Below, in pieces: positions 8,819 to 13,755 of a stretch of DNA of 64,000 nt. The stretch is taken from NCBI GenBank assembly GCA_965199495.1, contig CBDASK010000003.1:3680001-3744000 (forward strand), read 5' to 3'. Source of the stretch: Abditibacterium sp. Lineage in GTDB: Bacteria > Armatimonadota > Abditibacteriia > Abditibacteriales > Abditibacteriaceae. Position 1 is the stretch's first letter, and each line of letters opens with the position of its first letter. The notes beneath the pieces are model-generated. The model searched no databases. It had not been told where the DNA came from and saw only the letters and a list, made by a program, of their open reading frames with translations. Both the position numbers and the translations under genes were made by a program.

Positions 8819-10549
8819 ATGAATTCTTCAGAGAACAATACGAACACTCCGGCGCATCGCCAATATTCGGCGATTGTCGTTGACGGCGCCGACCGCGCGG
8901 CTTCGCGCGCCATGTATCACGCCTTGGGCTGGACAGCCGCCGATTTTCAAAAGTCGCAAGTCGGCATCGCCTCGACCTGGAACATGGTCACGCCGTGCAA
9001 TATGCACATAGATAAATTGGCGATTCAAGCCGAGCAGGGCGTCAACGAGGCGGGCGGCAAAGCGATGATTTTCAATACCATCGGCATTTCCGACGGTATT
9101 TCGATGGGCACCGAAGGCATGAAGTATTCCCTCGTTTCGCGCGAAATCATCGCCGATTCCATCGAGGCCGTGGCTGGTTGCGAGGGCATGGACGGCCTCG
9201 TCGCTATCGGCGGCTGCGACAAAAATATGCCCGGCTGTTTGATTGCCCTTGCGCGTCTCAATCGTCCGGCGGTTTTCGTTTATGGCGGCTCGATTTTGCC
9301 CGGTTGCTTAACCGGCGCTGGTTGCGATTTGGACGATCCGACGCAACCCAAGCTCGACATCGTTTCGGTGTTCGAGGCCGTAGGTAGCCACGCCGCCGGG
9401 AAGGTCTCGGATGCGCAACTTCAAGAAGTCGAGCGTCACGCGATTCCCGGCCCCGGCAGTTGCGGCGGCATGTATACCGCCAACACGATGGCGAGCGCCA
9501 TCGAAGCGATGGGCATGAGTTTGCCCGGTTCGAGCGGCCAAATCGCGGTTTCGCCCGCCAAAAAGGTGGACTGCGTGGACGCCGGTCACGCCGTGATGAA
9601 TCTGATCCACAACAGCATTCGCCCGCGCGACATCATGACGCGCCAAGCGTTCGAGAACGCGATTACGGTCGTTATCGCGCTGGGCGGCAGCACAAATGCC
9701 GTGTTGCATTTGTTGGGCATGGCGCACGCCGCCGAAGTCGAATTAAATATTGACGATTTTACCGAAATCGGCAAGCGTGTGCCGGTTCTGGCCGATTTGA
9801 AGCCGTCGGGCAAATATTCGATGGCCGAACTTTCGCGCATCGGCGGCATTCAACCGTTGATGAAACGCTTATTGGCCGCCGGACTTTTGCATGGCGATTG
9901 CCTGACGGTGACCGGCAAAACCGTCGCGCAGAATTTGGCCGAAGTCGAAGATTATCCCGAAAAACAGACGATCATCCGCGATATGAGCGACCCGATTAAA
10001 GCCGATTCACACTTGGTGATTTTCTATGGCAACTTGGCGCCGACGGGCGCGGTTGGCAAAATTTCGGGCAAAGAAGGCACGAGTTTTACCGGCAACGCGC
10101 GCGTTTTCGAGGGCGAAGAACACTGTTTAACCGCGATTTTGGACGGGACAGTTGTCGCGGGCGATGTTTTGGTGATTCGCAGCGAAGGCCCCAAAGGCGG
10201 GCCGGGCATGCGCGAAATGTTGTCGCCGACATCGGCGATTATGGGCAAAGGTTTGGGCAAGGAAGTCGCGCTGATTACCGATGGCCGGTTTAGCGGTGGC
10301 TCGCACGGTTTCGTCGTCGGTCACATCACGCCCGAAGCGTTCGAGGGTGGCCCCATTGCACTCGTTCGAGACGGCGACCAAATCACGATTGACGCCAACA
10401 AACGCGAAATCACGTTGGATATTTCCGACGCCGAAATGAACGAACGCCGTTTGGCGTGGCAACCGATGCAGCCACGTTACAAGCGCGGCGTGCTGGCAAA
10501 ATACGCGTCGCAAGTTTCGAGCGCCTCGACGGGCGCGGTCACCGATTAA
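8819..10549 (+). CDS. ilvD: Dihydroxy-acid dehydratase
   Basis: [55 protein letters not shown]. Confidence 0.98.
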
Positions 10550-10608
10550 TTCTGGCAAAAGAAAAGGCGCCCCCAACGCGAACTGCCTCTTCTTGTTTTG
10601 CCTGTCGG

Positions 10609-11277
10609 TCAACTTCCGTCCGATTTCTTGCAAAGATAGAAGCGGACGCCGTAGGGATAGACGCTGGGATAATACTGCTGGCCTTGTAACGACCAAAATC
10701 CAAAGAGATTGAGATTGGCGTGAATTTCTATGGGCCAACCGGTAATATGTTGTCCGACGAGACGCACGAACCAAGGCATCGAACTGGGATTGATAAGACC
10801 TTCGCCCCAAAACAAGGTTTGACCTTGGCAAATGGTGATGAAGTTGAGGTAAGTTCCGAATTGGCGGATGCAAGTTTCGGGCAACGCGCCCGGAGCTTGC
10901 GGCCCGGACGCGTTATAGCCGAACTGTGGCATCGGTGCTGGCACGCAAAATTGATCGTTGGGATTAAACCAGACACCCGTCATATCAACGCCGTTGAAGC
11001 CCTGGGTCTCTTGCACAATCCATGGCTGCTGGGACGTTTGTTCGACTGGCGCGACCGGTGGCGGAGCTGTGGGTTTGCCTTGTTCGGGGGCGGCCAGAGC
11101 TTTTTTTAAGGCTTCGAGAACAGTGCGTAAATCTTCATCCGAGGATGTTTTATCTACCCCGGACGAAAGATTTATGACGTATTGGTTGATGTCGCGCGCC
11201 GCATTGTTTTGATTGCCCGCGACGTTAGATTGTTCGTGGACGCGCTGATCTTCTTGGCCGAAGGTCGGATTGTCCAT
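10609..11277 (-). CDS. Hypothetical protein: N-terminal Q/N-rich motif, Pro-rich linker, beta-rich C-terminal domain
   Basis: ATG at 11277 overlaps the upstream TGA (TGATG); MDNPTFGQEDQRVHEQSNVAGNQNN... Confidence 0.7.
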   Translation of the reverse strand: MDNPTFGQEDQRVHEQSNVAGNQNNAARDINQYVINLSSGVDKTSSDEDLRTVLEALKKALAAPEQGKPTAPPPVAPVEQTSQQPWIVQETQGFNGVDMTGVWFNPNDQFCVPAPMPQFGYNASGPQAPGALPETCIRQFGTYLNFITICQGQTLFWGEGLINPSSMPWFVRLVGQHITGWPIEIHANLNLFGFWSLQGQQYYPSVYPYGVRFYLCKKSDGS

Positions 11278-11663
11278 CAGAGCGGGACACCTTGGACGAG
11301 TCCGTAAGTTTTGACCAACAGCGCGACGATGCCACCGACTTTTTCGATGCCTTCGAGGCAATCTTTGGCGTTGCCCAGATAATCCAGCAGCGAATGTTTG
11401 TCGGGGTCAGGCTCTTTGGCGATTTGCGCGGCTTTGGTGATGTTGTATTTTGCCTCGGTTTCAATGTCTTCGTTGATAGCGCCGTCTTGCCGCGCGTGGG
11501 CGAGTTGCCCTTTGAGGTCTTCCAAATTTTGCAACACCTCTTGCTGGACTTCACCAAAAGTCGCGTCGCCGCTCTTGATGTTTTGATTGCCCCCAATGTT
11601 TTGATTGCCGCCGATATTGTGCTGATTTTGCACTTGCTGACCCTGTTGGTTGAACGTGGACAT
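11277..11663 (-). CDS. Small protein: N-terminal Q/N/G-rich amyloid-like motif plus helical domain
   Basis: AGGAGGA RBS upstream of ATG at 11663; MSTFNQQGQQVQNQHNIGGNQNIGGNQNI followed by amphipathic helices. Confidence 0.8.
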   Translation of the reverse strand: MSTFNQQGQQVQNQHNIGGNQNIGGNQNIKSGDATFGEVQQEVLQNLEDLKGQLAHARQDGAINEDIETEAKYNITKAAQIAKEPDPDKHSLLDYLGNAKDCLEGIEKVGGIVALLVKTYGLVQGVPL

Positions 11664-11775
11664 GAAATCCTCCTGCGCGCCAGTCCGCACAAAAACAATC
11701 CGTCGAGCTAACGCGCTCTCCCACCAGTTTATAACAGTTATCGCAGTAAAAGTCAAATGAGGCATCTTCGTGGGG

Positions 11776-11945
11776 TATAGCGAATCCGAAAAGTATCGTC
11801 CTCTATGACAGCGGGGCTTGCGCCTCCTTCCAATCGGTGATATGTGAGGCTTTCCCCAGGGAAAGTAGGCGCAAGCCCCACTGCGAGTTTGGCCGTTTAA
11901 AAGGGAGATATCTTAATCAAGACAATCGCTTTCGGATTTGCTATA
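11776..11945. repeat. Composite palindromic element: TATAGC...GCTATA outer arms enclosing a family C hairpin
   Basis: tatagcgaatccgaaa / tttcggatttgctata, with inner cagcggggcttgcgcct...aggcgcaagccccactg. Confidence 0.7.
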
Positions 11946-11982
11946 TAGCGTTAAGTGAACCGCGCATGAGCTAATAGGAGCG

Positions 11983-12057
11983 CGTTATTATCGCGGCGTG
12001 TTAGCGAAATACGCCAAACAAGTTTCGAGCGCCTCGACGGGCGCAGTCACCGATTAA
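11983..12057 (+). repeat. Diverged direct copy of the last 25 codons of ilvD
   Basis: 64 of 75 nt identical to 10475-10549 by manual alignment; encodes [24 protein letters not shown]. Confidence 0.92.
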
Positions 12058-12163
12058 GCAATTTGCCAGTTCTTAACGTCTGCATGAGGAAAAGTAAAAC
12101 CAGAAACAAAAAAGCGAACCGGAGAAATCCGGTTCGCTTTTCTATTTTTTACGTTCGCAACGT

Positions 12164-13039
12164 TTACGCGATGATAAACGGTGCGACGCGCTTTTGCACT
12201 TCGGGCACTTCGAGCGCGATTTCCATCGCTGTTGGCGAGGGATTCATGTTATTCATGAACCGAATAACGCTGGTGTGGCGGGTTTCGATGCCATAAATTG
12301 AAGCGGCAAATTTCAGCGCATCCACGCTATCGAGCTTGGGGGCGGCACCTAAATAAGCGCCAACGCCGGTCTCTTCAAACGTTCCGGCCAGCGTCAAAAA
12401 CGCGACTTGCGAAACGTAAACATTCGCGGGAAATTGGAAGTTCGGTTTGGCAACGGGCGTGCCGTTGGCGCGACCAATGACATCCAAAATCGCCGTGACG
12501 TGGGCCGCTTCGTCGTCGGCGATGCCCTGCGTGATTTTGGCGACGGCGGGCGACAAGTAAGCGCGCGTGTTATTGGCTTCGACAATGCTGGCGTAGAAAG
12601 TCGCTTCCAAATATTCCAGTCCCAACGCGAAGTTGAGAATGTCGGCGTCGCTGGCGGAGGCGTGTTTGCCCGCGCCGGGAATCGTCAGGGCCGGATTGTT
12701 CGGGTTGATTTTGGTGCTGGGAACATTAGAATTGCTCTCAACGGCCTGATCGGCTGTGGGGGCGGGCGGCGGCGTATCCATTGCCATTTTGTCGTTCTGG
12801 CCCATGATCATCATGCCGTCCATCATTTTGCCATCATTCATCATTCCATCGTTCATCATGGTACCATCTTTCGCCATCGTGCCGTCTTTCGCCATCGAAC
12901 CATCTTGCGCCTGAGCGCGCGTGGCGGCGGTGGCTGTTGCGGCGAGGCCGACCATGAAAGCGGCATGTTTGAGCCAATCGCGGCGCGAAGTGTCGCGGGC
13001 GGTGGCATTAAGTTGCGTGCTATTGAGTGATTTGTTCAT
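12164..13039 (-). CDS. Ferritin-like domain protein with Tat-like signal and Met-rich repeat
   Basis: SRRDWLK Tat-like motif; DILNFALGLEYLEATFY, DEAAHV, FEETGVGAYLGA, IETRH four-helix E/ExxH pattern. Confidence 0.88.
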   Translation of the reverse strand: MNKSLNSTQLNATARDTSRRDWLKHAAFMVGLAATATAATRAQAQDGSMAKDGTMAKDGTMMNDGMMNDGKMMDGMMIMGQNDKMAMDTPPPAPTADQAVESNSNVPSTKINPNNPALTIPGAGKHASASDADILNFALGLEYLEATFYASIVEANNTRAYLSPAVAKITQGIADDEAAHVTAILDVIGRANGTPVAKPNFQFPANVYVSQVAFLTLAGTFEETGVGAYLGAAPKLDSVDALKFAASIYGIETRHTSVIRFMNNMNPSPTAMEIALEVPEVQKRVAPFIIA

Positions 13040-13755
13040 CGAGGTGCGCCTCCCTTGAAGCCGTATTTGGCCAATTTGTAACCGGTGGTCTGTGCGCCAT
13101 AAGCGCCTTCAAACGGCGCGGTGCTGGGCTTGAGACCAACGACCTGACGCAAAACTGCGGCATGACGGCCTTCAATTCCAGCGATGGCGGCGGCGGTCGA
13201 AAGCAACTTTTTGTTGCGCACGATGCCAACGGCTCCGTGATAGCCGAACAAAACGGTTTCTTTCACATCCAATGCGGTATTCAAAATGTCCTCGCGCGTG
13301 CTGAGGCTGGGATATTTGAACGCGCGCGGACGGCGCGAAGCGAAAGTATTAAGCGTCTCCGATTCGCCCGCGTCTTTATAGCCGAACGCGTCGCGCGCGG
13401 CATTCAAGATTTGATAATGCTCGGCGTCCTGCGAAGCCATCAACGTGATGATGTTGCGTTCTTGTCCGGTTAGCGAAGCGTAACCTTTGCTGCGCGTGAG
13501 GCGAGTGTAGATGTCTTGTTCCAACTCTTCCATTTCAAACGCGAAGTTCAAAACAATGGAATCGAGGTAGAAAAGTTTGCCGATTTTGGCGACCAAGTCG
13601 GCGCGCGCGGGGTTAAAGAGCGCCGAGGCGATAGTCACGCCGCAAGTCGCCGTCGCCATCGTGAGCAGTTGCCGACGCGTTGCCGACATACTTTCGAGCG
13701 GTGCGACGATGCGACGTTCCAGCGAGGGCGCCACTTCTTCATTTGGGTTCGTCAT
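13036..13755 (-). CDS. Ferritin-like domain protein with Tat-like signal
   Basis: TRRQLL; VLNFAFEMEELEQDIY, QDAEH, IAGIEGRHAAVLR; ATGA overlap with the next gene. Confidence 0.82.
   Translation of the reverse strand: MTNPNEEVAPSLERRIVAPLESMSATRRQLLTMATATCGVTIASALFNPARADLVAKIGKLFYLDSIVLNFAFEMEELEQDIYTRLTRSKGYASLTGQERNIITLMASQDAEHYQILNAARDAFGYKDAGESETLNTFASRRPRAFKYPSLSTREDILNTALDVKETVLFGYHGAVGIVRNKKLLSTAAAIAGIEGRHAAVLRQVVGLKPSTAPFEGAYGAQTTGYKLAKYGFKGGAPR

Follow-up and report, generated by a model that had tools for sequence, protein, structure and literature searches.

A 64,000-nucleotide stretch of an Abditibacterium sp. genome (assembly GCA_965199495.1, contig CBDASK010000003.1, positions 3,680,001 to 3,744,000; here "the window," whose coordinates are used throughout) carries on its minus strand two small overlapping genes, here called A and B, whose products begin with a common Q/N-rich motif (Table 1). 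Gene A encodes this motif followed by a predicted four-helix bundle, and gene B encodes it ahead of a larger and unrelated C-terminal domain. A first-pass annotation, made from the letters of the window alone, had read the two as a candidate amyloid-signaling pair. Its observation that the genes overlap by TGATG is borne out, as base 11277 belongs both to the TGA stop codon of gene A and to the ATG of gene B. Codon-usage scores are 0.497 for gene A and 0.223 for gene B (genome mean, 0.43; standard deviation, 0.17), and each frame is the top scoring of its six. Because the strong terminator at 12104 to 12147 ends the upstream ferritin-like gene, A and B likely start their own transcript within 11664 to 12103, and they are probably a separate transcription unit; a promoter scan found no sigma-70-type promoter for them, and positions 10400 to 12300 matched no Rfam family at the gathering score. 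Gene B is present as a called protein in a collection of 5.8 billion proteins, from which gene A is missing; although gene A has a strong ribosome-binding site, the source record may lack an annotation for it.

Table 1. Features of the A/B locus and its borders, in window coordinates.
Feature	Position	Strand	Description
Gene A	11277..11663	minus	128 aa plus stop; N-terminal motif, then four-helix bundle; ATG at 11663, stop TGA at 11279-11277
Gene B	10609..11277	minus	222 aa plus stop; ATG at 11277, stop at 10611-10609; one-base start/stop overlap with gene A
Shine-Dalgarno sequence AGGAGG	11669..11674	minus	6 nt before the gene A ATG
Motif region of A, residues 3-39	11547..11657	minus	TFNQQGQQVQNQH core, two NIGGNQ units, and NIKSGDATFGEV, matching the INFGxV end of the family motif
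Four-helix bundle of A	11289..11558	minus	Helices at residues 36-59, 65-82, 89-103, and 107-125
Helix 4 of A, residues 107-125	11289..11345	minus	Most hydrophobic and least charged helix; Gly/Ala/Ser-rich
N-terminal part of B, residues 4-63	11089..11268	minus	Homologous to family motif plus first helix
Common 20-residue motif in B, residues 5-24	11206-11265	minus	
Pro-rich linker of B, residues 64-85	11023..11088	minus	Read from the translation
C-terminal domain of B, residues 86-222	10612..11022	minus	W/F/Y/C-rich; candidate sensor domain
Terminator-like hairpin	10567..10579	minus	Where gene B and ilvD converge
Strong hairpin terminator	12104..12147		20 pairs; 3' of the upstream ferritin-like gene
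REP-like palindromic element	11809-11883		Upstream of gene A; 21-nt arms, 90% complementary, 33 nt apart
Strain-specific segment	10551..12103		1,553 bp; A/B pair, its upstream region, and the REP-like element

The N-termini of the two proteins are related beyond chance. Residues 3 to 22 of A and 5 to 24 of B are identical at 11 of 20 positions without a gap, as first reported by the annotation; when B residues 1 to 40 were shuffled with composition preserved, 11 identities were reached once in 20,000 trials and a BLOSUM62 sum of 63 never (0/20,000), and shuffles of the 20-residue motif alone gave 0/20,000 for either measure. Translated in all six frames, the 4.8-Mb genome has three matches to N[IVL][GA]GNQ, each of them within A or B. 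When the motif profile of the family described below was run over the 69,695 open reading frames (ORFs) of this genome, A (E = 2.6e-9) and B (E = 1.6e-3) alone were retrieved, the next hit lying at 0.65, and the profile of the helical bundle retrieved only A. Chance resemblance between the two motifs is excluded. The two NIGGNQ units that had been noticed in A stand in tandem as an 18-nt duplication, whose three differing sites are all synonymous; Tandem Repeats Finder did not report this two-copy repeat.

The same annotation held that the rest of the two proteins is unrelated, which is right for the C-terminal part of B (residues 80 to 222 have no relative in a word-indexed protein search) and wrong for B through residue 63. 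By hhalign, family positions 3 to 46, which comprise the motif and the first helix, align with B residues 4 to 63 (probability, 84.8%; E = 6.5e-6). Judged from this alignment, B seems to derive from the N-terminal third of a gene of the A type, to which a Pro-rich linker and then a C-terminal domain of unrelated sequence are added.

Neither protein scored above the cut-offs of Pfam, NCBIfam, PADLOC, or PHROGs. A word-indexed protein search returned no match for A, itself included, and B as the sole match both for B and for B residues 80 to 222. Other comparisons place A in a large family. A language-model atlas linked it to hypothetical proteins of 116 to 117 aa from Chloroflexota and Cyanobacteriota, and an exhaustive HMMER search (phmmer) against 1.84 billion representatives gave 231 matches at E of ≤1e-3, including 34 at E of ≤1e-10, with a best E of 6.4e-16 and many alignments spanning residues 1 to 124. 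Among the 150 matches listed, about half are stand-alone proteins of 106 to 135 aa that match from residue 1, and the others carry the module at the C-terminus. The consensus of a 40-sequence alignment is MxxFDQRGQxVxxQYNAxGDINFGxV, followed by a helical domain in which a KPxPDK loop is conserved and the last helix is rich in Gly and Ala. Gene A scores E = 4.6e-31 with the helix-domain profile and E = 7e-10 with the motif profile, and on these scores A is a divergent member of a family that joins an FDQRGQ-type motif to a four-helix bundle (∼116 aa in all). The motif region of the family is rich in Q (14.2%), N (12.8%), G (10.7%), and V (7.6%) and poor in K (1.5%), L (1.5%), and P (0.7%). The annotation had made its reading depend on conservation of the motif in homologs and in their neighbors; on the first count, the 231 relatives have the motif before the same helical domain.

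AlphaFold2 (AF2), given 59 sequences, models A as an up-down four-helix bundle (mean predicted local distance difference test [pLDDT], 83.7; predicted template modeling score, 0.69; bundle blocks, 95 to 98), preceded by a motif region that is predicted to be disordered (pLDDT, 46 to 59, without secondary structure). Over the family, helix 4 has a mean Kyte-Doolittle hydropathy of 0.80, compared with −0.05 to −0.41 for helices 1 to 3, a charged fraction of 0.14 versus ∼0.3, and a G/A/S fraction of 0.40, and it is a candidate membrane-inserting segment. Searches of the Protein Data Bank with a sequence profile of the bundle gave nothing below an E of 0.01. Foldseek gave nothing at E of ≤1e-3 (best E, 0.25) and returned generic four-helix bundles only, and the top VIA-align Z score, 13.2, was reached on unrelated four-helix bundles and is at chance level for helical bundles.

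The second count, conservation in neighbors, was addressed at other loci. A pattern scan seeded by a closer 10-sequence alignment, with one genome per species, yielded 43 loci, of which 22 are cyanobacterial, 10 are from Chloroflexota, 3 from Desulfobacterota, 2 each from Acidobacteriota, Gammaproteobacteria, and Actinomycetota, and 1 from Promethearchaeota (1 is unassigned). Separate motif and bundle profiles were scanned over all ORFs of these loci. Thirty were assessable, in that the family gene stands alone and is followed by sufficient sequence; L039, with 101 nt downstream, and L061, a special case, were excluded. The gene that follows the family gene is motif-initial and bundle-less at 25 of the 30 loci. 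At 19 of these, the partner motif was found by profile (E < 0.01) in a gene that overlaps the family gene or lies at most ∼90 nt downstream, and at 6 it was recognized by eye, below threshold (L034, L037, L041, L042, L057, and L058). Two more loci (L048 and L049) have a motif-bearing NACHT+FGE-sulfatase protein 3 to 4.5 kb upstream, and at three (L028, L032, and L056) no partner was found. In the same scan, gene B of the window had a motif E of 0.0023 and no helix-domain match.

What follows the motif in the partners varies widely. Partner bodies include a TPR protein of ∼170 aa, a protein of ∼520 aa with a C-terminal SH3_3 domain, and several without a known family. Particular loci have NB-ARC+TPR (L052), NACHT+FGE-sulfatase (L048 and L049), and HEAT (L042) partners, as well as the arrangements bDLD1-motif-EAD7 (L029) and CHAT-motif-HEAT (L060). 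The neighbors of these loci are housekeeping genes mixed with PIN, Uma2, AbiEii, HNH, nSTAND1, and PLD-like genes.

Some loci are arranged in other ways. At L044 (5393-7897), four successive motif-initial genes, of 172, 116, 174, and 328 aa, are followed by VWA-like and PLD-like genes. At L055, L056, and L059, frameshifts or stops divide the family gene among two or three ORFs, and the motif-bearing partner is intact at L055 and L059. In the cyanobacterial type with a TPR partner, the pair is followed by a third gene of ∼250 aa, for which a membrane segment is predicted and which matches no Pfam family (L022, 6908-7684; L027, 6919-7656; L037, from 3625; L058, from 6898), which suggests a three-gene version.

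In other relatives, the sensor and effector parts appear to be joined in one protein. When 67 longer family proteins were compared with Pfam at its cut-off, 27 had AbiTii, 3 Peptidase_C14, 3 EAD1, and 1 each CHAT, TIR_2, HetE-N, TPR, DUF2513, and a zinc ribbon, the remainder being without a family; the fused domain was always N-terminal to the motif. An adjacent motif partner was found at none of eight fused loci, as would be expected if one protein already unites sensor and effector. A Met stands three residues ahead of the motif Phe in 33 of 59 fused proteins (background Met frequency, 1.7%). At the level of DNA, six of nine fused loci have an in-frame ATG at the motif, and five of these six (L029, L043, L045, L046, and L047) have a Shine-Dalgarno-like sequence upstream of it. 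The internal Met may be a relic of fusion or, possibly, an internal start that yields a free effector isoform.

The motif can also differ between pairs. On plasmid pHAU02 of Herpetosiphon aurantiacus (L067, 3836-4872), Haur_5292 retains the bundle behind a different N-terminal motif, and Haur_5291, 5 nt downstream, begins with the matching variant (10/17 identical; E = 4e-4). By sequence comparison, the motif type of this pair has been changed in both genes together. The Herpetosiphon pair was the one match to the family in a search of plasmids, and the 67 pattern matches in viral contigs included a single match to the family, weak and partial.

For gene B itself, the comparisons gave little. 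There was no usable match in the ESM Atlas; 60 related genomes held weak matches only (E ≥ 0.002), six of eight with internal stop codons; and an AF2 model from the single sequence was unusable (pLDDT, 35.7).

The pair has an accessory location in this genome. On a low-depth contig of run X1, the sequencing run in which the window is also represented, from a co-occurring relative that is ∼10% divergent, position 10550 is joined to 12104 through 13 other letters, which delimits an insert or deletion of 1,553 bp that carries only a repeat, A, and B. The flanking ilvD gene is matched up to its stop in 12 of 12 same-genus genomes, and none of the 12 has a DNA match to 10550 to 12103 apart from a short dispersed repeat; in two of them, other genes come after ilvD. 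The 14-nt core of the repetitive extragenic palindromic (REP)-like element upstream of gene A has 43 copies in the genome, three of them in the window, and further copies in same-genus genomes, and the depth of the run X1 contig rises about tenfold over the element. The family is also sparsely distributed: with 300 genomes sampled per group, one carried it among other members of the window's phylum (in a fused form), three among Chloroflexota, and none among Cyanobacteriota, counts from which some members may be missing, as the first pass scored 15 candidates per genome. Beyond the terminator, at 12164 to 13755, are two tandem Ferritin_2 genes with twin-arginine-like leaders, one of them with a Met/Asp/Gly-rich repeat (MAKDGT / MMNDG). 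The Ferritin_2 genes and ilvD fall on separate contigs in both of the closest same-genus genomes, which indicates a synteny breakpoint.

The type of motif found in A and B and the signaling logic that it suggests are already known. Amyloid signaling from sensor to death effector occurs in fungi, in mammals, and in a few bacterial systems, and, in the accessible text of the reports compared here, to which our comparisons apply, published screens presume a Bell-like effector with a C-terminal motif. Bacterial amyloid signaling sequence (BASS) motifs were defined as short motifs of similar sequence encoded by neighboring genes, in a screen of Bell C-termini against the N-termini of NOD-like receptors (NLRs) (Dyrka et al. 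2020, bioRxiv 10.1101/2020.01.06.895854); a screen limited in this way could not have detected the A/B layout. A field review of 2025 likewise describes motifs at NLR N-termini and effector C-termini. A and B resemble BASS pairs in having a motif of ∼25 residues, with much Q, N, G, and V (and, in the BASS description, I) and little K, P, or L, in adjacent, collinear, often overlapping genes, and the family resembles them in that a small helical protein goes with a partner, often of NB-ARC or NACHT type, whose motif is N-terminal, in taxa that are mainly filamentous Cyanobacteria and Chloroflexota. Such NB-ARC and NACHT partners are the genomic signature of BASS, and they support the amyloid-signaling reading of the first-pass annotation as a candidate. 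Its description of a pair with both motifs N-terminal and no NLR is confirmed for the window: B lacks the NTPase of BASS receptors, which is present in the partners at L052, L048, and L049. A differs from BASS effectors in that it is not a Bell domain, with neither a Pfam match nor an N-terminal hydrophobic helix.

The closest described motif is archaeal. The NLR AEB69175.1 of Methanothrix soehngenii, an NB-ARC-type protein, has an N-terminal motif that was classed as an "other BASS" with a resemblance to BASS3, the BASS1-10 profiles having failed to detect it (Dyrka et al. 2021, PMC8086366). Its residues 5 to 29 agree by eye with nearly all fixed positions of the family consensus, the common core being F-D-Q-R-G-Q-x-V-x-x-Q-x-N-x-A-G-D. 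The synthetic AEB69175.1(5-29) peptide gave Fourier-transform infrared maxima below 1635 cm-1, of cross-beta type, and was stained by Congo red (PMC8086366). The system differs from A and B in its archaeal host and in its partner, a Bell-domain protein with a C-terminal motif. The data sets of that study, in the part accessible, hold only three distinct sequences with an FDQRGQ-type core, and its accessible text makes no mention of a four-helix effector family or of non-NLR partners.

An amyloid-motif pair without an NLR has been described in Escherichia coli ECOR25, where the antiphage system Bab/Agp acts through abortive infection and damages the membrane (Ibarlosa et al. 2024, bioRxiv 10.1101/2024.11.07.622273). 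Like A and B, this pair combines a helical effector of ∼110 aa with a non-NLR partner that has the common amyloid motif. Agp is a protein of 1,094 aa (TPR-GreA/B-C-PIN), in contrast to the 222 aa of B with its orphan domain, and the polarity of the effectors is opposite: Bab begins with a hydrophobic helix (MEPIS-type) and ends with the motif, whereas A begins with the motif and ends with its hydrophobic helix. The Bab residues named in the text of that report, I87-G88-S89-V90 and D99-N100, have no obvious counterpart in the family alignment. The HET-s/NWD2 system of Podospora has the logic proposed here, in which the N-terminal motif of the sensor templates the motif of the effector and frees the membrane-inserting helix of a helical bundle, and motif units can be repeated on its effector side, like the two NIGGNQ units of A. 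The likeness is one of logic, as HET-s is fungal and places a transmembrane helix at the N-terminus of its HeLo fold and a prion domain at the C-terminus. A further comparison is with the EAD and Death-like adaptors of prokaryotic conflict systems (Kaur et al. 2021, PMC8195603), which, like the family, have EAD1, EAD7, bDLD1, caspase, CHAT, TIR, and STAND NTPases nearby and which, as is proposed for A and B, couple sensor to effector through a common module on separate proteins. Those adaptors are folded and have 60 to 100 residues, as opposed to the disordered Q/N-rich stretch of 20 to 35 residues in the family. A word search of the accessible text of PMC8195603 (amyloid, four-helix, pore-forming, AbiT) found no description of the module.

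As far as our searches show, the effector family, the N-terminal placement of its motif, the breadth of its non-NLR partners, and its fused forms are undescribed. Neither the four-helix family nor its AbiTii fusions turned up in the literature, preprint supplements lying outside this search, and a full-text search for AbiTii together with amyloid returned no paper. A search for the motif strings FDQRGQ, YQYNAAG, FDQRNQ, and FNQQGQ returned PMC8086366 as the only relevant paper, and literature from 2022 on (BASS12, BASS13, and amyloid signaling motif) yielded nothing on the family.

With a little more confidence than doubt, we interpret A and B as a BASS-type, amyloid-signaling-like module in which B is the sensor and A the death effector. 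B would read a cue through its orphan C-terminal domain, assemble through its motif, and engage the motif of A by recruitment or templating. The bundles of A, once clustered, would open, and the Gly/Ala-rich last helix would insert in a membrane, an action of A that would kill the cell or arrest it. Binding of A to B through the motif and the amyloid nature of the assembly are inferred. The assignment of A as executioner and B as sensor is likewise provisional, as are the membrane target and a role in defence or in another form of regulated cell death.

Several observations weigh against this interpretation. In 26 pairs of the FDQRGQ type, identity within pairs (8.35/24) is no higher than between pairs (8.41/24), so pair-specific co-variation, and with it specific templating, is not indicated. 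The core of the motif is generic, and partners often retain its first half alone (∼14 residues). The fit of B to the family motif profile is modest (E = 0.0016 to 0.0023), and its homology to the family continues into helix 1, so a contact of coiled-coil type would fit as well. Published pairs, in the accessible accounts, have the effector motif at the C-terminus, and that of A is N-terminal. The hydrophobicity of helix 4 is moderate (best 15-residue window, 1.66 as the family mean and 1.83 in A), and the fold of A, which resembles generic bundles only, is uninformative on pore formation. Since the C-terminal domain of B has no relative, its role as a sensor is a guess. Finally, the neighbors in the window are housekeeping genes (ilvD, ferritin-like, and DsbD) and not a defence island.

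The main rival is a contact of the adaptor type, which keeps the logic of a sensor that recruits an effector and replaces the amyloid with homotypic docking: the motif, in B together with helix 1, would form a heterodimer or small oligomer, as EAD or Death-like adaptors do. The extension of the B homology through helix 1 and the lack of co-variation in the 26 pairs would suit it, as would the AF2 motif without beta structure and the placement of the module, which is that of adaptor domains, behind TIR, caspase, and CHAT and beside EAD1, EAD7, and bDLD1. We nevertheless hold it to be unlikely. Most partners have the Q/N-rich core only, without helix 1, the composition and length of the motif agree with those of BASS motifs, and a peptide of the same motif gives cross-beta aggregates in vitro (PMC8086366). 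The number of N-x-G-G-[DN]-x repeats, moreover, varies (A, P0005, P0015, P0021, and P0026), which is typical of beta-arch stacks and not of a fixed interface.

An inhibitor role for B and a tag read by a third party are less likely than the adaptor contact. In the former, A would be toxic by default and B would cap or buffer its motif, so that loss or titration of B frees A. Small, translationally coupled genes, the downstream one overlapping the stop of the first, are what such a toxin and regulator would look like; neighbors of toxin-antitoxin type occur at other loci (PIN, AbiEii, DUF433, and DUF2442), and the first-pass annotation had itself allowed for an inhibitor. The broader family makes this quite improbable: NB-ARC and NACHT partners have TPR or FGE-sulfatase sensor domains, and NTPases of this kind activate effectors in the systems studied, according to the accessible accounts; fusions in the order sensor, motif, bundle suit activation in cis better than inhibition; and split or frameshifted A-type genes stand beside an intact partner at L055 and L059.

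The chances of the tag are slimmer still. Here the motif would be read by a protease or by a degradation or export system, and A and B would be co-processed. The position of the motif at the extreme N-terminus of both proteins would fit, and so would the caspase-like and CHAT domains among the fusion partners and the Met that precedes the motif Phe by three residues in fused proteins. The Shine-Dalgarno-like sequences ahead of that Met at five of six loci, however, point to a fusion relic or an internal start and not to a cleavage site. No conserved third gene accompanies the pairs, the insert in the window holding A and B only, and the motif-bearing NLR-type proteins are cytoplasmic sensors.

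That the likeness is a chance effect of low complexity, or that A or B is not a gene, we count as already refuted: both were orphan-like in the word-indexed search, where A is not called, but the shuffle statistics, the uniqueness of the motif in the genome, the 231 relatives of A, and the pairing kept in other phyla speak against chance, as the best-of-six codon scores, the strong Shine-Dalgarno sequence, the start-stop coupling, and the 3/3 synonymous differences between NIGGNQ units speak for genes.

A wider claim we advance tentatively and with somewhat more doubt than confidence: the pair may be a first sighting of a widespread class of prokaryotic death effectors, in which an N-terminal prion-like motif drives a four-helix bundle, an arrangement that mirrors those of HeLo, Bell, and Bab. 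The sensors (TPR, SH3-ended, HEAT, NB-ARC, NACHT, or orphan) would be interchangeable and would switch these effectors on through cross-beta templating, the motif type could be swapped in both genes at once, and an internal start in fused genes would give sensor-linked and free effector. The family comprises at least 231 sequence clusters, from Cyanobacteria, Chloroflexota, Acidobacteriota, Desulfobacterota, Proteobacteria, Actinomycetota, and one Asgard archaeon, and its partners reach far beyond NLRs, which flags N-terminal effector motifs as a blind spot of current motif screens. If true, the catalogue of executioners of regulated cell death in prokaryotes would grow; the position of the motif would not be fixed, which would constrain models of effector release by templating; and A and B, a two-gene system of 350 residues, would be small enough for full mutational and structural dissection.

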